A DNA stretch of 64,000 nt from a virus, in IMG/VR virus record IMGVR_UViG_3300028800_000076, positions 1-64,000 of that record. One strand, written 5' to 3'. Below are positions 31,636 through 44,669 of the stretch, piece after piece; the first letter of the stretch is position 1; each line of letters opens with the position of its first letter. The notes beneath the pieces were generated by a model. That model made no database searches. It was not told where the DNA came from and saw only the letters and a program-made list of their open reading frames with translations. The translations under genes were made by a program, and so were the position numbers.

Positions 31636-33285
31636 ATGAACCAAGCCCTTCTCCTCGCAGCCGCAGCCAAGAAATACAGGGAACTGGCTGAGCGAGAGCA
31701 GTGTGAAGATGATCTCTACAAGTTCCTTCAGGCAGGCTGGAAGTACATTGACCCCGCCCCTTTTGTCGGCGGCTGGCATCTGGAGGCCATCGCAGAGCAC
31801 CTGGAGGCGGTCACCAGGGGCCAGATCAAGCGGTTGCTGATCAACGTGCCGCCCCGCTCCTCCAAAAGCTCCCTGTGCTCTGTGGCATGGCCAGCCTGGA
31901 CCTGGGCGCAGTCAGTGCAGGGTCCTTGCTCAGGCCCTCACGTCCAGTTCCTCAGCGCGTCCTATGCGCAGACCCTGGCATTGCGTGATTCGGTCAAGAA
32001 CCGCCGCCTGATCGAATCGCCATGGTTCAAGAAAATCTGGGGCGAGCGATTCCAGATGACCTCGGACGTGAACACCAAGGGCCGATTCGAGAACAACAAG
32101 GGCGGGTACAGACTCGCAACGTCTGTAGACGGGGCCCTAACTGGGGAAGGCGGACAGGTCATTTTAGTGGATGACGCCCATAATGCCACCGAGATCGAAT
32201 CAGACTTGGTGCGCGAATCCACCATCATGTGGTGGGACGAGGCCATGAGCACCCGCCTCAATGATCCGGCCACAGGTGCCTTTGTGGTGATCATGCAAAG
32301 GCTTCACCAGGAAGACTTAACGGGCCACATCAAGGACAAGGACCCCAACAACGACTGGACGTGGCTGATGCTGCCCATGGAGCACGACCGCTCCAGGCAC
32401 TGCATCACCTACGCCAAGAATGAATACGGCGAGAAAGAACAACTCTGGGAGGACCCTCGCGAGGAGGAAGACGAGCTTCTGTGCCCCACCCGCTTTCCCC
32501 GCGAGCAGGTGGACCGCCTCAAGGCCCAGCTAGGCCCCTTCGCAGCGGCGGGCCAACTTCAGCAGAGCCCCACGCCCAGAGGCGGCGGTATCATCAAGGA
32601 GGAGTGGTGGCAGGACTGGGAGGAGGATTCCTACCCGGTATTTGAGTACCTCATTGCCTCTGTGGATACGGCCTACACCGAGAAAGAGGAAAACGATCCC
32701 AGCGCGCTGACCATCTGGGGCGTCTTTCGCGAATACCGCACCGGCAACATGAAGATCATGCTGGTCTGGGCCTGGGAGGGCAGATTCGAGCTACACGACC
32801 TCGTGGAGGAAATCCTAACCACTTGTACGGTCAGTCCTATTTCCAATACACGCCAGGAGAAGCACGCAGGCAGGCCACGCTTTCCGGTCCATCTTTTATT
32901 GGTGGAATCCAAGGCTTCGGGATTGTCGGTGGGGCAAGAACTCTACCGGCTCATTGCGGGCAATGCGCCCTTCAACATCCAATTCCCCAACCTCAATAAG
33001 GGCCGATACACCCAGGACAAGGTGGCCCGGCTTTATTCGGTCCAGCATATCTTTGCGGACAAGATGGTCTACGCCCCACTGGGTAGAACCTTTGTGGACA
33101 AGGTGATCGATCAGGTCTCGGCCTTCCCCAAGGTCTCCCACGACGACTTGGTGGATACGGTCTCCCAGGCGCTCAAGTACCTCCGAGACACCGGCATCTT
33201 GGTGCGTCGGGACGAGCAGGCACTAGATTTAGATAGGGAAATGGCTTACCGTCCCAAGCAATTACCATTGTACCCAACCGGCTAG
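31636..33285 (+). CDS. terL: terminase large subunit
   Basis: RLLINVPPRSSKS, TGEGG..ILVDD, IMQRLH..DL.G, GQLQQ.P, SVDTA, ESKASG, HDD.VD. Confidence 0.96.
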   Translation: MNQALLLAAAAKKYRELAEREQCEDDLYKFLQAGWKYIDPAPFVGGWHLEAIAEHLEAVTRGQIKRLLINVPPRSSKSSLCSVAWPAWTWAQSVQGPCSGPHVQFLSASYAQTLALRDSVKNRRLIESPWFKKIWGERFQMTSDVNTKGRFENNKGGYRLATSVDGALTGEGGQVILVDDAHNATEIESDLVRESTIMWWDEAMSTRLNDPATGAFVVIMQRLHQEDLTGHIKDKDPNNDWTWLMLPMEHDRSRHCITYAKNEYGEKEQLWEDPREEEDELLCPTRFPREQVDRLKAQLGPFAAAGQLQQSPTPRGGGIIKEEWWQDWEEDSYPVFEYLIASVDTAYTEKEENDPSALTIWGVFREYRTGNMKIMLVWAWEGRFELHDLVEEILTTCTVSPISNTRQEKHAGRPRFPVHLLLVESKASGLSVGQELYRLIAGNAPFNIQFPNLNKGRYTQDKVARLYSVQHIFADKMVYAPLGRTFVDKVIDQVSAFPKVSHDDLVDTVSQALKYLRDTGILVRRDEQALDLDREMAYRPKQLPLYPTG

Positions 33286-33742: not shown

Positions 33743-33867
33743 TGGACCACGCAATCACATTGGGTGATGTTCTGGTGGTTCTGGCCGTGTTTGTCGGCGT
33801 TCTGGGCGCGCTCGGTCTTCTGGTTCTTGTGATCAGCCTTACGAATCCATTCAGGAGCGGCCATTAA
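33742..33867 (+). CDS. 41-aa single-TM protein
   Basis: TAATG overlaps at both ends; MDHAITLGDVLVVLAVFVGVLGALGLLVLVISL. Confidence 0.55.
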   Translation: MDHAITLGDVLVVLAVFVGVLGALGLLVLVISLTNPFRSGH

Positions 33868-36539
33868 TGGCGCGCAGGCCCTCCGCACTGAAGCTGGTCC
33901 AGCCGGAAAACGCCCTTCCGGGCCCCGCCAGCGTTGACGTGCCCCCGCAGGGGCCTGATTCGCCTGTTTCGGTCAAAGATGGCGTCCTTTCCATCGAACA
34001 TCCGGACGGTGCGGTCACCATCGACTTCAATCCGGACCTCTCGAACCCAGACAAGAAGATTTCAGGCGACTTTTACGCCAATTTGGCGGGCGAAATAGAC
34101 GAAGGGACGCTGGAAACCATCGCTGCTGATCTCCTGGAGGGCTTCGACCGCGATGTGCAGTCCCGCAAGGAGTGGCTGGACACCCGGGCACGCGGAATCC
34201 AGCTTTTGGGTCTCAAACTGAATGACCCTAAGTCTGCCCCGGTCGATGGAACGGCCTCAATGGAGGGCACGTCCCAGGTTACGCACCCCCTGCTGCTGGA
34301 ATCCACCATCCGCTTCCAGGCCACCGCCCGTGGCGAGCTTTTGCCTGCCTCAGGGCCGGTCAAGGTGCGCAACGACGCGGTGCCGAACCCGAAGCCTGCC
34401 CCGCCGATGCCGCCCGTGGCCCTGCCGCCGCCGTCCCAGGAGAACAATCTGGGCATGGTGCCGGACGGCATGCCTGCTCCAGGCTCACCTGGGGCTGCAC
34501 CTCCCGCACCGTCTCCAGGGCCGCCACAGGGCATGCCAGGGCCCGCAGGAGGCGCTCCTGGGGCTCCGCCGCTGCCTGCCCCGCCCCCGCCTCCTCCTGA
34601 GGATCAGCCGATCAGTGACGACGATCTGGCGGGTGCCCTCGAAAAGGATATGAACCACTACCTGACGGTGACGGCGAAGGAATACATCCCCGACACCGAC
34701 AGAATGCTGTTCTACATCGGCTTTGGCGGTGACGGCTTCAAGAAGGTCTTTAATTGTCCCCTGAGGCAGCGCCCGGTCTCGGAGAGCGTAGACGCCGAGG
34801 ACCTGATTGTATCCAACGCTGCGACTGCGCTGGCCAATTGTGGGCGCATCACGCATCGCATCCGGATGCGCAAATCCATCCTCAAGCGCATGCAGATTAT
34901 CGGCGCGTACCGGGATGTGGAGCTTAATACCCCCTCCCCGCCGCAGCCGACCCCCGTAGACGTAAAGAAGGCTGAGATCGCAGGCGAGAATGTCAACGTC
35001 CAACGCCCCCAGGATCGCGACTACGAGATTCTGGAAATCTACTGCGAGCTTGATCTGGACGACTTCGCGCCCAAGCACCTCAGGAAAGAGGGCCTGCCGC
35101 TGCCCTATCGGGTGACCATCGAGAGGCAATCCAGGCAGGTACTCTCGGTTATCAGAAACTGGAACGAAGACGACAAACAGGCCCTGCCCAAGCAGTTCTT
35201 TGTGCAGTTTCCCTTTGTACGTGGCCTTGGCTTTTATGGCCTGGGCTTCATCCACATTCTGGGCAACACCACTATTGCGCTTACGGCTTTGTGGCGCGAA
35301 ATCATCGATGCCGGAATGTTCGCCAACTTCCCGGGCTTCCTCTATCTCAAAGCGCTGGGCAGGCAGCTAACCAATCAATTCCGGGTGCCTCCTGGCGGCG
35401 GCGTGGGTCTCGATGGAGGTCCCGGCCAAGACATCCGCTCCATGGTGATGGCGCTCCCCTACAAGGAACCCGGCGCGGCCATCACATCCTTTACCTCGCA
35501 CATCGAGGAGGTGGGCCAGCGTCTAGGCATGACCGGCCAGACGGAGGTGGGCGAGGGCAAGCAGGATGCTCCAGTTGGCACCACGCTGGCCCTGATCGAG
35601 CAGGCCACCAAGATCATGGACTCGGCCCACAAGCGGCTTCATGCCGCCCAGGCCGAAGAATTCCAGTTGCTCAAGGAGCGCTTCAAGGAAGACCCAGAAG
35701 CGCTGTGGCGGCACAACAAGCGCCCCACATTGCCCTGGAAAAAGGAGATGCTCTTAAGTGCCCTGGAGAACCATGATCTGGTTCCGGTGGCCGATCCGAA
35801 CAATCCCACGTCGCTGCATCGTGTGGCCAAGGCGCAGGCCCTCCAGCAGCTTCAGCAGACCTATCCGAACCTCTACAATCCGCTGGCGATCAACCAGCGC
35901 ATTCTGCGCACGGTGGATATCGACCCAGAGGGCCTCTTCAACGAGACGCCGACTCCGGATAAGCCAGACCCGAGACTGGTTGCGATCCAGGAGAAGGCTA
36001 AGGCATCGCAGATGCAGGCCCAGTTGGGTGCGATGCAGGCCCAGTTGCAGCAGACTGTAGAGACCATGAAGGTCCAGAATGCCCAGCAGGACCGCGAATC
36101 ACGCGAGCGCATTGCTGCGGCCAAGCAGCGCCTGGAAGAAACCCGGCTGGTGATCGAGCAAATCAAAGACTCGGATCAGTGGAATATGGAAAACGCTCAG
36201 CGCATCCAGGAAATGTACCACAAGGAAATGGCGCAAGCGGCTGACCTGGAGAATGAGCGCCGCCGCATGGTCATGGATGGCGCGCAGAAGCACCAGGAGC
36301 TTCAGCAGCAGGGCGTGGAGAAGGCCGTTGAGATACATCACGATAACATTGCCGCCACGCATGAGCATGAGCGAGCTAAGCAGCAGCATTCTGCCGATAT
36401 GGACATGGCCCAGCAAAAGCACGAGCAGGCCATGGAGCATCAGCGCCAGCTTCACGAACAAAAGCTGGAGCAAGCCAAAGCCCTTGCGGCTCAGGCAAAA
36501 GCAGCTAAACCTAGCAAACCCACAAAGGGGAAAAGCTAA
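33867..36539 (+). CDS. portal protein (long, podovirus-type)
   Basis: Position after terL; FYANLA, SR.EW, HPLL.E...FQA, G.GFYG.G, LPYKEP, APVGTTLAL.E; C-terminal coiled coil. Confidence 0.9.
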   Translation: MARRPSALKLVQPENALPGPASVDVPPQGPDSPVSVKDGVLSIEHPDGAVTIDFNPDLSNPDKKISGDFYANLAGEIDEGTLETIAADLLEGFDRDVQSRKEWLDTRARGIQLLGLKLNDPKSAPVDGTASMEGTSQVTHPLLLESTIRFQATARGELLPASGPVKVRNDAVPNPKPAPPMPPVALPPPSQENNLGMVPDGMPAPGSPGAAPPAPSPGPPQGMPGPAGGAPGAPPLPAPPPPPPEDQPISDDDLAGALEKDMNHYLTVTAKEYIPDTDRMLFYIGFGGDGFKKVFNCPLRQRPVSESVDAEDLIVSNAATALANCGRITHRIRMRKSILKRMQIIGAYRDVELNTPSPPQPTPVDVKKAEIAGENVNVQRPQDRDYEILEIYCELDLDDFAPKHLRKEGLPLPYRVTIERQSRQVLSVIRNWNEDDKQALPKQFFVQFPFVRGLGFYGLGFIHILGNTTIALTALWREIIDAGMFANFPGFLYLKALGRQLTNQFRVPPGGGVGLDGGPGQDIRSMVMALPYKEPGAAITSFTSHIEEVGQRLGMTGQTEVGEGKQDAPVGTTLALIEQATKIMDSAHKRLHAAQAEEFQLLKERFKEDPEALWRHNKRPTLPWKKEMLLSALENHDLVPVADPNNPTSLHRVAKAQALQQLQQTYPNLYNPLAINQRILRTVDIDPEGLFNETPTPDKPDPRLVAIQEKAKASQMQAQLGAMQAQLQQTVETMKVQNAQQDRESRERIAAAKQRLEETRLVIEQIKDSDQWNMENAQRIQEMYHKEMAQAADLENERRRMVMDGAQKHQELQQQGVEKAVEIHHDNIAATHEHERAKQQHSADMDMAQQKHEQAMEHQRQLHEQKLEQAKALAAQAKAAKPSKPTKGKS

Positions 36540-39010: not shown

Positions 39011-39604
39011 ATGGCTTGGCCCAAAGGAAAACCGCGTGGTAAGACTGCTCCTTCGGTTGCTGACCTTGCAGGTGCTCCAGCCACCCCAGTGGAACGCGCG
39101 CCCCTCAAGGCTCGCCCCACTGGGGTGAACCGCTTCAAACTCAAGGCGGGCGCGAATTGGGAATCGACCGATGATAGTCTCCCGGACGGCATCGACCGCT
39201 ATCACATCGACAAGGAAGAGATTCCAGAAGGCTTCGACCTTCAGTGGGTGACGGTCAGCGTCCTGGGCCAGGACATGCCGCGCGAGCGTGCAGCCTTCGA
39301 GCGTAAGGGCTGGACGCCTGTCCATCAGGAAGACTTCGACGGCACCTTTAATGGCCGCTGGATGCCTCGCGATGCGGATGGCGAGATCAATGAGGGCGGT
39401 CAGGTGCTGATGGCACGCCCGCTTGAGATCAGCCTGAAGGCCCGCAAGCGCGATCAGCAAATGGCCCGCGATCAGATTCGCGTCAAAGAGCAGGCGCTGT
39501 ATTCGGGTGATCTGCCCATCTCGGGCGCGGATCACGTCTCGGCGCGTAAATTCAATTCGATCAATCGCAGCGTTGAGAGGATTGCGGTTCCCTCGGATGA
39601 TTGA
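39011..39604 (+). CDS. conserved head-region protein
   Basis: IPEG...QW...S.LG...GW.PV...GG..LM.RP. Confidence 0.65.
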   Translation: MAWPKGKPRGKTAPSVADLAGAPATPVERAPLKARPTGVNRFKLKAGANWESTDDSLPDGIDRYHIDKEEIPEGFDLQWVTVSVLGQDMPRERAAFERKGWTPVHQEDFDGTFNGRWMPRDADGEINEGGQVLMARPLEISLKARKRDQQMARDQIRVKEQALYSGDLPISGADHVSARKFNSINRSVERIAVPSDD

Positions 39605-40247
39605 TTCCTATTCTGCTGCGAGGGCCGCAGGCGCTAAGAAGTATTTTACTGGGAAGCCCTGTAAATACGGTCACCTCGCAGAGCGGCTTGCTTCGACTGG
39701 CTCCTGTACACGATGCAATGAGATTAATAATCTATTGTGGGATGCTGCGCACAGGCAGCAGCGAAGCGAAGCTGCAAAATCTCGTCGTCAAGAGAATCCG
39801 GAAAAACAACGGGAGGCTGTGCGCAGACATTACATTTCCAATAAAGAAAAAAGGCTCGCATTTGCGAGGCGGTATGCTGAAAAACACAGAATATTAATTG
39901 CAGAAAAACGAAGGCTTCCAGCCAGCAGGGTCAGGGACCGGGAGCGGTTGAGGAAATGGAGAAAAGATAATCCAGAAAGTGTAAAAATGAGCACTAGCCG
40001 CCGCAGAGCGGTAATTGGCAATCATAGTCGCGCAGACATATCAGAGATACTAGGATGGCAGAGAAATAAATGCGCGTATTGTCGTGTGAGTCTGCGGAAA
40101 GGTTTTCACCTGGATCATATTTTGCCTATCGCTAAAGGCGGATCGAACTTTAGAGCCAATCTTCAGGCCCTATGCCCAGACTGTAATCTGCGGAAAAATG
40201 CCAAACACCCTATTGAATTTGCCCAAAATATTGGATTGCTGCTCTAG
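39597..40247 (+). CDS. HNH endonuclease
   Basis: YFTGKPCK.GH; CAYC...HLDH..P...GG.N...NLQ.LC..CN..K; lower GC. Confidence 0.88.
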   Translation: MIDSYSAARAAGAKKYFTGKPCKYGHLAERLASTGSCTRCNEINNLLWDAAHRQQRSEAAKSRRQENPEKQREAVRRHYISNKEKRLAFARRYAEKHRILIAEKRRLPASRVRDRERLRKWRKDNPESVKMSTSRRRAVIGNHSRADISEILGWQRNKCAYCRVSLRKGFHLDHILPIAKGGSNFRANLQALCPDCNLRKNAKHPIEFAQNIGLLL

Positions 40248-40401: not shown

Positions 40402-41028
40402 ATGGCTAATACGAATAACGCATTTGGTTTCCGCTCGTTTGGCCATCAGGATGGCTCCGCCCCGACGATGGGGCTTCAGCGCTATTTCATCAATTCCAGC
40501 GACACCAACCTGTACTTCACGGGTGATCCGGTGGCGCTCTCGTCCGCTGTTGGCGGCGGCAACATCCAACCCTATAGCGGTAGCTCGCTCTCGGTCATCT
40601 GCCTTGGCATCTTCGCAGGCTGCGAATACTACAACACCAACGTCCAGAAACAGGTCTGGTCGCCATACTTCCCGGGCAACGTCGGCTCTTCGAGCCCTTG
40701 CACCGCCTACGTCATCACCGATCCGGAAATGCAGTTTCTGGTCCAGGCCTCATCGGGCCCGGTGACCTCCAGCTATATCGGCTACAACCTCAACATCATC
40801 TCGGCCGTTTCCTCGTTGGGCAACACCACCAACGGTATCTCCAACGTCACCATCAACTCGTCGGCGGGCACGCTCGGTGGCTCCTCGCAGCCCTTCCGCG
40901 TGATCGACGTTTATTCGAACTTCGCACCTCCGGGCGCTCCGGGTGCTGATGTCACGACTGCTTTCAACTGGGTTGTTGTCGCGCCGAATAACTGGGCTCG
41001 CCGGACCCTCACGGCCGTCAGCACCTAA
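40402..41028 (+). CDS. putative capsid decoration/minor head protein
   Basis: MAN.N..FGF, F.GDPV, GIF.GCEY, V.TDP...F.VQ; lies before the MCP; Ser-rich. Confidence 0.7.
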   Translation: MANTNNAFGFRSFGHQDGSAPTMGLQRYFINSSDTNLYFTGDPVALSSAVGGGNIQPYSGSSLSVICLGIFAGCEYYNTNVQKQVWSPYFPGNVGSSSPCTAYVITDPEMQFLVQASSGPVTSSYIGYNLNIISAVSSLGNTTNGISNVTINSSAGTLGGSSQPFRVIDVYSNFAPPGAPGADVTTAFNWVVVAPNNWARRTLTAVST

Positions 41029-41711
41029 TCATGACAACCGCCCTCGCCAATAACGTATTTCTTGGTCTTGCGCTTCCTGGGAAGCGCAGCCAGGATTTCG
41101 GCTGGCGATTTGCCTTGGCTTCCAAGAGCCAAGATTATTGCGATGGTTTCTTCGGTAATAATGGCGCTAAATTCGGAACCGTCATCGATGTGTCGCCACG
41201 AACGACCAGTGACGATACTGTTGACTGTGCCGTAGGCGAGTCCAAGGGACTTGGCCACCGCGACTTGCTGCTCGCCTTCCGTAACGCGGCGTTTAATCTC
41301 CCTTACTTCATCTTCCGAAAGCTTTTTTCGCCAGCGGCCAGCGTGCACAGAATCACGGATGTTTTGTCTGTGCGAAAGCCATTCGAGGTTGCTGGCCGCG
41401 TTGTTCATCGGATCATGATCAATGTGGCTGGCGTCAGAAAGGTTTTCCGGGTTGGGAACGAAAGCAATCGCAACCAGTCGATGGACCAGGAATTGGCGCT
41501 CATTTCCATTCTTGGAAAGGACGACACACAGTCGGCCGCCTTGTCGGCCCCCGGCAAAGTTGGTGCTCGGCTTCAGAACGTGGCCATTCCGGCGAATGCT
41601 CCGACCCCGGCCGTCCGTCACAATACGCTCGATGCTTCTTACACGGCCAAGGTCGCTAACTTCATACAGGCCTTCGTAGCCAACCACTGCACGCCATTCC
41701 TCAAGAAACAT
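41025..41711 (-). CDS. NUMOD4-HNH homing endonuclease
   Basis: EEWR.V.GYEG.YEVS.LGRVRS, VHRLVA.AF, H.D....N...NLEW. Confidence 0.92.
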   Translation of the reverse strand: MFLEEWRAVVGYEGLYEVSDLGRVRSIERIVTDGRGRSIRRNGHVLKPSTNFAGGRQGGRLCVVLSKNGNERQFLVHRLVAIAFVPNPENLSDASHIDHDPMNNAASNLEWLSHRQNIRDSVHAGRWRKKLSEDEVREIKRRVTEGEQQVAVAKSLGLAYGTVNSIVTGRSWRHIDDGSEFSAIITEETIAIILALGSQGKSPAEILAALPRKRKTKKYVIGEGGCHD

Positions 41712-41854
41712 TCTTATTCTCCATTCATGGAACCTAACAGGGTTTATGTAATGGATGCTAATAAGCTTGTCAATGGTCACCACAAATTCCTCTCAGGCGA
41801 CTATGATACTGCAAAAAATGCAGTTAAATCAGCGCCTTATTTGGGAGTACTATA

Positions 41855-42769
41855 ATGCCCGTAGCTCTTTCGCAAATCCGCGATTTGCTGCTCCCAGGCC
41901 TCTGGGGAATAAGCGGTAAGTATCCTATGATTGAGAGGCAGTGGCCAAAAGTTTTTCGGCAAACCGAATCCAACATGGCGCTCGAACGTCGCGCGGCCAT
42001 GAGGTATCTCGGCTACGCGCAGCTTAAGCAGGAAGGCGCTCCGACTTCCTTCGATAACGCGGCTGGCCAGCGCTACATCTACAATGCAGAGCACTTTGAA
42101 ATTGCTCTCGGCTATGCCATCACCCGTAAGGCCATCGACGACAACCTCTATAAGTCAGAGTTTGGTCCCAATAACGACGGCCTGATGGAGAGCTTCAAGG
42201 AGACGGAGGAGCTTTACGCTGCCAACGTCTTCAATCAGGGCTCGACTTATAATCCGGCTATCGGCGGCGACGGCGTGGCGCTCTTTAGCACCTCGCATCC
42301 GACTGATGCGGCCACCATCTCCAACATCGCATCTCCGGCCGTGGGTCTGAACGAGACCTCACTGCTCAATGCGCTCATCACCATCCGCACCACTTGGCTT
42401 GATAACGCGGGCCTCAAGATTCACGCCCGTGGCCGCAAGGCTGTGGTGCCTCCGAATCTGGAGCCGATTGCGCTGCGACTGTTCCGCAGCGAGTTGCGCC
42501 CCGGCACGGCCAACAACGATGTGAACGCCATTCTGGGCATGAACGAATCCCTCAAGGAGGGATTCCTGACATGGGACTATCTCACGTCGTCCTTTGGTTG
42601 GTTCGTTCTTACCAATCATGAAGGCCTGATCTTCTTCAACCGCAAGCCGTATGAGACGGATATGTCGGTTGAGTTTACGACTGACAATCTTCTGGTGAAG
42701 GGCTATCAGCGATACGTGCCGACCTACTATGATTGGCGCGCGGCCTGGGCTTCTTACGCCACGTCGTAA
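41855..42769 (+). CDS. major capsid protein (Mu gpT-like family)
   Basis: LLPGL, K.EG, ALGY.IT..A..DNLY, GGDG.ALFST.HP, YLT...WF, DWR. Confidence 0.88.
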   Translation: MPVALSQIRDLLLPGLWGISGKYPMIERQWPKVFRQTESNMALERRAAMRYLGYAQLKQEGAPTSFDNAAGQRYIYNAEHFEIALGYAITRKAIDDNLYKSEFGPNNDGLMESFKETEELYAANVFNQGSTYNPAIGGDGVALFSTSHPTDAATISNIASPAVGLNETSLLNALITIRTTWLDNAGLKIHARGRKAVVPPNLEPIALRLFRSELRPGTANNDVNAILGMNESLKEGFLTWDYLTSSFGWFVLTNHEGLIFFNRKPYETDMSVEFTTDNLLVKGYQRYVPTYYDWRAAWASYATS

Positions 42770-42795: not shown

Positions 42796-43782
42796 ATGAC
42801 GATTAGTGCATGGACTGGCCCAGTAGTCAGCTTTGGTACTGTCCTTAATTCCACCAATGGCCTGACGGGCACGAGTGCGGATAACAATCCGCAGAATGGC
42901 CCGTCCATGTTCGCTAATGGCGGGGCGCTTCTCGATCCGCGTGCTGCCTACCAGTATTTCCCTGGCGCGGGCATCTCGACGCCGGTCTATGGGTTTATGT
43001 ACGGCGATGCGACGGTGGACTATGCTCCGTCTTCGGCCTCGTCCAATGCCTTTGCGGTTAGCTCTGCAACCCAGCCCGGCGCTAGCTCTGCGATCACGCT
43101 CACGCCCTCGGCGGCCAAGGGCACATTTCTCACCACCATTGTGGCTCCTGAGAATGGCCAGACTGTTTCCGTTATCGCCATCGACTCGACGGCCGCATTC
43201 CTGAGCTTTGGTTCAGACGCCAACGTGCGCGTTTGGAACCCGACCGCAGGCACGGGCCGCTGTATCTCCATCACCACGTCTTCGTCTGGTGACCAAGGAA
43301 GCTGGACTATCGCTGGCCGCGATATGTACGGCTATAAGATGACTGAAGTGATCGCCACGTCGAGCGTCACCTTCACCACCCAGAAGGCCTTCAAGTATCT
43401 GAATGCCAATGGCGCGATTACGGCCTCTTCGGTTGTCACCAGCACGGGTGTTAGCGTCGGTCTATCCGATACCTATGGCATGCCATTCCGTGTGAACCAT
43501 GCAGGTGTTGTGAACCTCCTTCTGGCGATGTCGTCTGGAGCGGGCGGCGGCTTGCTCCTGACAACGGTAGCCCCGACTTCTGGTAACCTCGTCTTCGGCT
43601 CGACTGCTCTCACGGCCACTGCGACAACTGCCGATCCGCGCGGCACCTGGGCCTCTTCGCTGGCGTCCGGTAGCTCGAATCGCATGCAAATCCAGGTGAC
43701 GCCGACTGCGGCGGCCCTGGCCTCGATGACCAGCAGCAACATGCAGCCGTTGTTCGGCTATCCACAATTCTCTTCGGTCTAA
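42796..43782 (+). CDS. Ser/Thr-rich virion protein
   Basis: Follows the MCP; G.D.YG..M.E motif; very S/T-rich. Confidence 0.7.
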   Translation: MTISAWTGPVVSFGTVLNSTNGLTGTSADNNPQNGPSMFANGGALLDPRAAYQYFPGAGISTPVYGFMYGDATVDYAPSSASSNAFAVSSATQPGASSAITLTPSAAKGTFLTTIVAPENGQTVSVIAIDSTAAFLSFGSDANVRVWNPTAGTGRCISITTSSSGDQGSWTIAGRDMYGYKMTEVIATSSVTFTTQKAFKYLNANGAITASSVVTSTGVSVGLSDTYGMPFRVNHAGVVNLLLAMSSGAGGGLLLTTVAPTSGNLVFGSTALTATATTADPRGTWASSLASGSSNRMQIQVTPTAAALASMTSSNMQPLFGYPQFSSV

Positions 43783-43796
43783 GGAGCACCTAGACA

Positions 43797-44033
43797 ATGG
43801 CCAATCGTCACAAGATGGCTCGCAAGAGCGGTGGCAAGGTTTACTACGATGGCGGGTCTTCCAAGGTCGCCAAGGAAGCCAGCGAGCGCAAAGACGGTGG
43901 CTCGGTCAAGCGCGCCGAAGGCGGCAAGGTCCCAGCCAAGGCAGCGGGCGGCCGTCTGGACAAGCGTGCTCGCGGCGGACGCACAGGCGCGGACAAGAGT
44001 CCATTCTCTTCGGCGGCCCTCAAAAAGGGGTAA
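43797..44033 (+). CDS. basic protein with repeated xxGG motifs; -1 frameshift donor
   Basis: RKSGG, RKDGG, RAEGG, KAAGG, RARGG; ends A_AAG_GGG_TAA. Confidence 0.75.
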   Translation: MANRHKMARKSGGKVYYDGGSSKVAKEASERKDGGSVKRAEGGKVPAKAAGGRLDKRARGGRTGADKSPFSSAALKKG

Positions 44034-44215
44034 CAGCGTTCGCGAGCGGGGGCTGGATCGCGGGCGCGGTGAAGCACAAGGGAGCCCTCAGGCAGGCCGC
44101 GCATCGTGCCGGAGAGAGCACGCACGAGTTTGCAGAGACTCACAAGAATGCTCCAGGGACTCTAGGACGCAGAGCTAGATTGGCCCTCACTCTCTCAAAG
44201 CTGAGGAACCGCTGA
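44030..44215 (+). CDS. startless -1 frame extension (FASGG-WIAGAVKHKGAL...GRRARLA.TL)
   Basis: 61 open codons filling the gap to 44220, after a slippery heptamer and pseudoknot. Confidence 0.7.
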   Translation, partial: VTAFASGGWIAGAVKHKGALRQAAHRAGESTHEFAETHKNAPGTLGRRARLALTLSKLRNR

Positions 44216-44219
44216 TCCC

Positions 44220-44669
44220 ATGAGCTTCCCCTACCTTCAGCGCAGCATCGCGGTCGGCACATCCTCCACAAACGCCTATGCGGCCAACCAAACCATTGGG
44301 GGGCTGAATCAGATTCAGAACGTGCCATCCGGCATGTTCATCCAGGCTGTAACCATCACCACGAAGTCGTGCAACACCGGCCAGATGGACTTCCTGCCGT
44401 TCAATTCCTCGATGCCCAATACGACCTTTAGCGATCACAGTTCGATTGCGATTTCATCACAGGATGTTGGTTCGGTGATGTCGCCCATCCACATTACCGA
44501 CTGGACTGCGCTGGGCACGCCATATGTGGGGACAGCCAATGGGCTGGCCTATGTCTATCAGGTGCCATCCAATGCACCGCCATCCCTCTATTTTGCGCTG
44601 GTGACACGCGGCACGCCTACCCTTGCTTCTTCAGCCGACGTGCAGGTGACTGTCACCTTTGTGAGCTAG
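44220..44669 (+). CDS. putative virion structural protein
   Basis: Beta-rich, S/T-rich, in the structural operon. Confidence 0.6.
   Translation: MSFPYLQRSIAVGTSSTNAYAANQTIGGLNQIQNVPSGMFIQAVTITTKSCNTGQMDFLPFNSSMPNTTFSDHSSIAISSQDVGSVMSPIHITDWTALGTPYVGTANGLAYVYQVPSNAPPSLYFALVTRGTPTLASSADVQVTVTFVS

Follow-up and report, generated by a model that had tools for sequence, protein, structure and literature searches.

Does a small gene that ends AAG GGG TAA, and behind which an open frame without a start codon runs on in the -1 register, make one protein or two? This question is raised by a locus in the first 64,000 nucleotides (nt) of IMG/VR virus record IMGVR_UViG_3300028800_000076; this whole stretch, which we refer to as the window, comes from an IMG/VR viral contig of 76 kb, complete according to CheckV. 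The gene is a 78-codon open reading frame (ORF), the product of which we call the N part, and the frame behind it encodes a small helical module known from other phage proteins. A preliminary description of this DNA had proposed a programmed -1 frameshift at A_AAG_GGG, followed by an H-type pseudoknot. From comparison with 21 other loci (their frames, slip sites and coding signature) we consider it likely, with strong comparative support, that ribosomes undergo a true programmed -1 frameshift shortly before the end of this small basic phage gene. The elements concerned are:

43797 to 44033, plus strand: 0-frame ORF (N part), 78 aa, with its TAA stop at 44031-33
44024 to 44030, plus strand: slippery heptamer A_AAG_GGG, which holds the tetramer G_GGG (44027-30)
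44031 to 44033, plus strand: 0-frame stop UAA in the 'shifty stop' position, directly 3' of the slip site
44030 to 44215, plus strand: -1-frame extension of 61 codons (VTAFASGG plus the module), with its TGA stop at 44213-15
44054 to 44212, plus strand: helical module of ~55 aa (WIAGAVKHKGAL...RRARLALTLSKL), a phrog_20603 member
44036-45 with 44058-67, plus strand: hairpin stem 1, 10 bp including two G-U pairs, with a 12-nt loop and a 5-nt spacer
44048-54 with 44083 to 44089, plus strand: proposed pseudoknot stem 2, not supported

When the sequence was re-read, the letters and coordinates of the preliminary description all proved correct. The 0 frame closes with CTC AAA AAG GGG TAA, and A_AAG_GGG is the only in-phase X_XXY_YYZ heptamer of the 78-codon ORF. 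The first -1-frame codon, GUA (44030-32), overlaps the 0-frame UAA, and from there the -1 frame reads KGVTAFASGGWIAGAVKHKGAL...TLSKLRNR up to the TGA at 44213-15. As had been stated, this frame has no ATG; there is no ATG, GTG or TTG in it before the GTG at 44069, and it is open for 108 codons ahead of the Trp codon of the module. Conceptual translation bears out the lengths of the two predicted products, one of 78 aa and one of 78 + 61 = 139 aa (isoelectric point (pI) 11.4) after a shift at the heptamer, and the predicted junction peptide of the latter is GVTAFASGGWIAGAVK. As the ATG of the next gene sits 4 nt past the -1-frame stop, positions 44034-44215 have no other coding use.

Syntenic loci were retrieved from viral contigs and metagenomes by way of the 328-aa protein encoded directly upstream of the 78-aa gene, and were supplemented by two pattern scans; the N-part alignment was too divergent for a locus scan. 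In 22 distinct loci (the window and 21 metagenomic loci) the module comes after the N part but lacks a start codon, and it lies in the -1 frame relative to the N part in 22/22. In none of these relatives does a start occur in the 25 or more codons that precede the Trp codon, and the distance from the end of the last N-part sense codon to the Trp codon is 23, 29, 35, 44 or 47 nt, all of which are 2 mod 3. Where the module stands beside the N part with a start of its own the frames are mixed, being +1 in L013 and L119 (GTG), +1 in L120 (ATG) and -1 in L114 (ATG), and in L009 the module is a separate gene ~520 nt away. Judged against the 21 other loci, the heptamer and the frame relation are far beyond chance.

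The start-less loci fall into two classes by their slip sites. Class B consists of 14 distinct loci including the window, and in 14/14 a tetramer X_XXX (G_GGG or A_AAA) is followed directly by TAA or TAG. The two codons before the stop are AAG GGG in seven (six A_AAG_GGG and one C_AAG_GGG, the latter in L136; L128, L133, L134, L135 and L139 also have AAG GGG followed by TAR, where R is a purine), GTA AAA in two, and ACG GGG, AAA AAA, GAA AAA, GGA AAA and CCA AAA in one each. Eight of the 14 came from a scan with a pattern confined to the module, which introduces no slip-site bias. In addition, in 14/14 the -1 codon that lies over the stop is either GTA or ATA, with a purine as the next base; this preserves the 0-frame TAR, which would be unselected in a plain in-frame gene, so that both products appear to be wanted. 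The comparison shows the frame relation, the missing start codon and a stop under apparent selection at the slippery run. A P-site slip at a run plus stop would be shared by every class-B site, L149 and the sites with A_AAA plus stop among them. The junctions of L149 (3135-3202) and L133 (7615-7682, minus strand) are identical except for ACG GGG TAG in the former versus AAG GGG TAG in the latter. That L149 keeps only G_GGG plus stop hints that P-site slippage at the stop may be the core event.

Class A comprises eight distinct loci, all of which (8/8) carry CAC CCT TTC, i.e., an in-phase C_CCT_TTC, at the Pro-Phe of a PFSSA motif 7-14 codons ahead of the stop, and which, except for L113, have no slippery run at the stop. 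The idea of one heptamer at the stop common to all relatives was wrong for this class. Some 20 distinct relatives without a start-less module have CCG, CCA or CCC TTC at this position, and two have T_CCT_TTC; the association between C_CCT_TTC and the start-less module has a Fisher p of 3e-7, with no correction for shared ancestry. For instance, L113 (...KHPFSSAHRG*, CAC CCT TTC, with module) and L097/L100 (same tail, CAT CCG TTC, no module) differ at exactly those synonymous positions. L113 (1106-1171) has both candidate sites, C_CCT_TTC at Pro-Phe and G_GGG directly before TAA, and could be an intermediate between classes A and B. In E. coli, A_AAG_GGG and C_CCU_UUC both rank in the top 15 of the -1 motifs measured for efficiency (PMC4066793). 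The frameshifting reported there for AAAGGGG is 0.13% unstimulated, 0.78% with the IS911 stimulator and 5.7% with the IS3 pseudoknot; for CCCUUUC it is 0.19, 1.4 and 23%, in this order (PMC4066793).

The coding signature of the region behind the stop agrees with translation in the -1 frame. In pairwise comparisons of the 11 gap-free class-B sequences, the fraction of post-stop codon differences that are synonymous was 0.48 in the -1 frame versus 0.13 and 0.19 in the other frames; none of the 11 has a stop in the -1 frame, and a class-B linker peptide, [VI]-x-G-x-x-x-Y-[AS]-S-G-G-G-x-x-H-W, is conserved. By this comparison the -1 frame is shown to be coding from the stop codon onward.

The module that this frame leads to is a portable one. 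The preliminary description had likened the extension to a small phage protein, and this was borne out by a full-length match to phrog_20603 (E = 1.9e-6, profile positions 3-59 of 59). The likeness to the small phage proteins of phrog_20603 and phrog_15706 lies in this profile match and in shared head and tail motifs, W-I-x-G-A-[IV]-K-H-x-G-A and R-A-R-L-A-L-T-L in the case of phrog_20603. While members of phrog_20603 are stand-alone proteins of ~60 aa with their own start, the module in the window is start-less and can be entered only by way of the upstream ORF. With phmmer, 316 module-bearing protein clusters were identified at E <= 1e-3 among 1.84 billion representatives. Outside the clade considered here, in ~75 viral loci, the module is either stand-alone or the in-frame C-terminus of a larger protein. 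The stand-alone copies begin M-A-K-x-W-I, with the start 3-6 codons ahead of the Trp. Some of the fusion partners are basic GG-repeat proteins, with junctions (...AKGG-WI, ...RASGG-FI, ...ARGG-WI) that resemble the ...FASGG-WI of the window; several of the fusions have the junction pattern ...[AK]xGG-W-I, and others have an N-terminus that matches phrog_1064, annotated as 'prohead'. In-frame fusions in homologues had been named as a check on the frameshift, and one was found in P0010 (254 aa, on a 70-kb contig), in which residues 1-79 are 56% identical to the N part of the window (E = 3e-23) and continue in frame into the module. As far as sequence can tell, P0010 shows that the fused architecture is viable.

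An AlphaFold2 model of the module has four short helices (pLDDT 79). It had no match in the PDB (Foldseek E > 4; VIA Z <= 3.4), and in BFVD there were weak matches, including to a 59-aa protein of Thermus phage P74-26 and to domains of crAss-like 'cargo' proteins. In Pfam the only match to the module head was a sub-threshold one to the N-terminus of fusellovirus VP2 (E = 2e-4), which we regard as a lead only. The module is also found inside large proteins of 465-1261 aa (P0069, P0077, P0087, P0088, P0136 and P0140), in which no Pfam domain was found; these may be polyvalent or cargo-type virion proteins.

Among the alternatives to frameshifting, independent translation of the module, whether from GTG 44069, from a non-canonical start (AUC 44057, for example) or by reinitiation once ribosomes have terminated at the UAA, survives best, although we consider it unlikely. 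It would agree with those relatives in which the module is a separate, translationally coupled gene after the N part (GTG in L013/L119, ATG in L120 and L114), with the G-rich Shine-Dalgarno-like run GGGGG (44048-52) ahead of the Trp codon in the window, and with the ATG that lies right behind the Trp codon in class-B relatives. However, a start at GTG 44069 would cut off the nearly invariant W-I-x-G-A head of the module, and this position is GTA or GTT in relatives and so is not conserved as a start, which disfavours the GTG that the preliminary description had itself listed as a way in which the frameshift might fail. Neither does independent initiation require that the -1 phase be kept in 22/22 start-less loci across five linker lengths, and it leaves unexplained the protein-level selection on the -1 frame from the stop codon on, upstream of the Trp. 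Slippery sites, moreover, co-occur with the start-less state.

A sequencing or assembly indel, the other such possibility, would mean that the real phage has one more G at 44027-30 and a plain in-frame gene of 140 codons. The break does lie in an A5G4 homopolymer tract of a single metagenomic contig, one added G gives ...KKGVTAF... in frame, and the in-frame homologue P0010 exists. Against this, 21 other loci from independent metagenomes have the same -1 offset at runs of G4, A4, A5, A7 and CCCTTT, and the 0-frame TAR preserved in all of class B would be under no selection in such a gene. In addition, about 45 loci have homologues of the N part, and in many of these the N part stands without the module, its tail being ...PFSSAxxK*; on this account the short product would be functional by itself. 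With a selected 0-frame stop kept in 22 loci, we regard an indel as very improbable.

We give even less credence to the module being a decaying remnant, i.e., one that has lost expression and whose -1 ORF has ceased to be translated. Losses of the module are indeed seen in this clade, since L100 has only '...TLKGFH*' and L109 and many others have no module (L109 also lacks the heptamer). However, in the window all 61 codons of the frame are preserved, 4 nt separate its stop from the next gene, and it gives a full-length match to the family profile; relatives at 35-60% identity keep the -1 frame open with an excess of synonymous changes. In L100 (2806-2860) it is the 0 frame directly after the N-part stop that reads TLKGFH*, the last residues of the module; as judged from its sequence this is a deletion remnant, and the module has been lost in some lineages.

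For a ribosomal frameshift of this kind a stimulatory RNA structure is looked for 5-9 nt 3' of the slip site, and the relatives have a stem there. In class B, RNAalifold identified de novo a stem that starts 5 nt past the last sense codon; on the structure specified for it, all seven core pairs are paired in every aligned sequence (77/77 cells). Three of these pairs show double changes (U-A:8/C-G:3; C-G:6/U-A:3/G-C:1/U-G:1; C-G:5/U-G:5/U-A:1), and control structures in which the partner was slid had 21-45% pairing versus 92.7% for the stem itself. L146 and L128 were left out of this alignment because of indels; L146 keeps the stem (GGUUCCAC/GUGGAACC) and L128 has a 10-bp version. The comparison thus shows a covarying stem in these relatives at the same 5-nt distance as in the window. 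The linker of the window is 21 nt shorter, and both arms of the relatives' stem are missing from it, yet it has a stem of its own at this distance, and this hairpin is the candidate frameshift stimulator of the window. In class A, a hairpin lies 4-6 nt past the heptamer in 7/8 loci (-18 to -35 kcal/mol), while the predicted fold of L010 starts later; compensatory changes were found only within the L006/L127/L101 subgroup, and there was no consensus fold over all eight loci.

The class-B relatives could form an alternative second helix, GCAUCC with GGAUGC, as a pseudoknot, for which there was no covariation. The loop of L128 (950-1050) holds GAGCAGCUUG, a perfect 10-nt complement of which, CAAGCUGCUC, occurs ~60 nt downstream inside the module coding region; as a long-range pairing or pseudoknot it was rejected, being not conserved in other class-B loci.

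Transcriptional slippage, in which RNA polymerase would stutter on the A5G4 run and insert one extra nucleotide, is the least probable alternative: there are homopolymer runs at all class-B sites, one of them A7 (L145), but most are of 3-4 nt, far below the established lengths for productive polymerase slippage (reviewed in PMC5009743), and the CCCTTTC of class A and the covarying RNA stem 5 nt downstream fit a ribosomal event and its stimulator.

Programmed ribosomal frameshifting itself would proceed as follows. Most ribosomes would read the 0 frame to the UAA at 44031-33 and release the 78-aa protein, and a fraction would slip back by one base on A_AAG_GGG (44024-30). This could happen by either of two routes that would give the same protein: tRNA-Lys and tRNA-Gly might slip in tandem from AAG GGG to AAA GGG, or, with the slowly decoded UAA in the A site, peptidyl-tRNA-Gly might slip on G_GGG. 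The 10-bp hairpin 5 nt past the slip site would stimulate the shift. The slipped ribosomes would then read GUA (Val) and 60 further codons to the UGA at 44213-15, giving a 139-aa product in which the C-terminal ~55 residues are the portable four-helix module.

A number of points weigh against this reading. The case is wholly computational and is built on related metagenomic sequences; the loci are related by descent, so that their counts are not those of independent events, and the first class-B scan was biased in that it required AAGGGGTAR, which the second did not. A single extra G in the G4 run of this one metagenomic contig would make the gene a plain in-frame one, and the ATG directly after the Trp codon, which class-B relatives have and the window does not, is a possible start for a truncated module. 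The efficiencies quoted above are E. coli values and may not hold for the host of the phage.

The structural claims made for the window are also weaker than those for its relatives. For stem 1 and its 5-nt spacer, the pairing, the coordinates and the status as the minimum free energy fold (about -19 kcal/mol) stood, and its stability is at the 3.4th percentile of 45-nt windows over the surrounding 7 kb, but it is not exceptional against composition-matched controls (z = 0.05 versus dinucleotide shuffles, with 19% of synonymous-codon resamplings as stable). A pattern scan for the short linker of the window gave only stand-alone or in-frame copies of the module, so that its hairpin has no covariation support. 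The H-type pseudoknot is not supported: while 44048-54 and 44083-89 are complementary, as had been claimed, the stem 2 duplex (-16.8 kcal/mol) is at chance level (-15.2 +/- 2.3 in shuffles, 22% of which are as good), 9% of genomic windows pair with the stem-1 loop as well as 44083-89 does, and the pairing is absent in relatives.

The 78-aa gene occupies a late-operon position in the head-proximal part of a podovirus-like structural module, two genes after that of the major capsid protein (MCP), with these neighbours and signals:

31636-33285: terL, upstream of the 78-aa gene
33867-36539: SU10-type portal, upstream of the 78-aa gene
41855-42769: MCP (phrog_371), upstream of the 78-aa gene
42796-43782: unannotated 328-aa protein, between the MCP and the 78-aa gene
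43782 to 43786, plus strand: Shine-Dalgarno-like AGGAG, 10 nt ahead of the ATG of the short ORF, read from the sequence
44220 to 44669, plus strand: next gene, 149 aa, with its ATG 4 nt past the -1-frame stop

Farther downstream are, besides the 149-aa protein, a 900-aa protein, virion structural proteins and an ejection-like protein, and neither a tape measure nor a tail tube was found among the surrounding structural genes. A tail assembly chaperone was considered and rejected, as the gene follows the MCP and the 328-aa protein and has neither a tape measure or tail tube nearby nor a match to a chaperone family; gene order and the lack of family matches bear out the earlier statement that it is neither the tail chaperone nor the MCP.

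The N part has a pI of 10.7 and a mass of 8 kDa, with 14 Gly and 21 Lys+Arg, repeated xxGG[KR]V motifs and a conserved ...DKSPFSSA... tail; it had no PHROG or Pfam match and is probably disordered. Searches of phage GenBank records (DNA search and tblastn) found no match to the N part or the module, the sole match being that of the MCP (68%) to MW202675, the downstream genes of which differ. A scan for host genomes gave only distant matches to metagenome-assembled genomes, the nearest informative one being a Bosea scaffold (33% identity) without the module.

The 328-aa protein directly after the MCP is rich in Ser, Thr and Ala and, despite lacking a PHROG or Pfam match, is well conserved. Homologues at 40-58% identity occur in >40 metagenomic phage loci, the motifs GRDMYGYK and WNP.AGTGR being invariant, and a role as a second capsid protein or a decoration protein is possible. 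The head module also contains two homing-endonuclease-like ORFs, one at 39507-40247 (plus strand) with an HNH-type motif (...HLDHILPIAKGG...CPDCNLRK), and one at 41025-41783 on the opposite (minus) strand between a 209-aa gene and that of the MCP, which is overlapped by a 274-codon plus-strand ORF at 41031-41855.

As to function, the fusions to prohead-type proteins suggest, with low confidence, a head-internal docking or oligomerisation role for the module, which would dock to, or oligomerise with, a partner inside the head. By analogy with lambda G/GT and T7 10A/10B, we infer, also with low confidence, that the frameshift would set a fixed ratio of untagged to module-tagged basic virion protein. 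More tentatively, the module might be a general docking tag for head-internal or ejected proteins, for which phages would have three interchangeable means of supply: a gene of its own, an in-frame fusion or a -1 frameshift. In this clade the frameshift would then set the stoichiometry of tagged to untagged copies of a protamine-like DNA-associated protein; we think this possible rather than probable. With such a tag, the slip site would have moved between C_CCU_UUC inside the ORF and X_XXX at the stop, while the frame and the stem were kept.

Nearly all of the frameshifts annotated in phages belong to tail assembly chaperones (PMC10885494). The present locus adds a well-supported one in another gene, that of a small basic protein near the capsid genes of uncultured podovirus-like phages of soil and freshwater. 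A single gene family here has the module in a gene apart, fused in frame, or recoded with two slip-site solutions, which amounts to a compact natural experiment, and the family offers a handle on the function of the widespread phrog_20603 module. For annotation, gene callers would give a 78-aa protein and either an orphan gap or a truncated 48-aa GTG ORF, and would miss the 139-aa product.

The closest known parallels include phage proteins that exist in a short and a C-terminally extended form. As in the lambda-type gpG/gpGT system, a short late-operon ORF has a -1 slip site close to its end, from which a short product and one with an additional C-terminal domain would arise, presumably at a fixed ratio, and the arrangement is kept across divergent phages despite low identity. 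Unlike gpG/gpGT, the gene in the window lies near the MCP, an SU10-type portal and ejection proteins, has no chaperone-family similarity, and belongs to a family that slips at A_AAG_GGG, X_XXX plus stop, or C_CCU_UUC, versus the G_GGA_AAG of the lambda-type chaperone. In T7, the head-region gene 10A/10B yields a minor extended form when ribosomes shift by -1 within a few codons of the 0-frame stop (PMC5009743). The likeness to it lies in the extension of a head-region gene product by a -1 shift; however, gene 10 encodes the MCP and has the site G_GUU_UUC with a distant stimulator, whereas here the protein is a Gly-rich one of 78 aa, the stop abuts the slippery run and a local hairpin follows.

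The bacterial -1 frameshift cassettes of dnaX, IS3 and IS911 are similar in having a heptamer, a 5-6-nt spacer and a stem-loop or pseudoknot; here, in contrast, no upstream Shine-Dalgarno-like enhancer was found, no pseudoknot is supported, and what is added is a small helical module and not an enzyme domain. A slippery run directly 5' of a stop codon has been termed a 'shifty stop' (Weiss et al. 1987, as cited in PMC4066793 and PMC5009743), and the 14/14 class-B loci, with G_GGG or A_AAA followed by UAA or UAG, resemble this arrangement and would fit P-site slippage while the release factor is awaited. While the classic natural shifty stops are +1 (prfB, antizyme), the shift here would be -1 and is accompanied by a downstream stem. 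The mechanism is a canonical one, and it is the gene family that is new for it.

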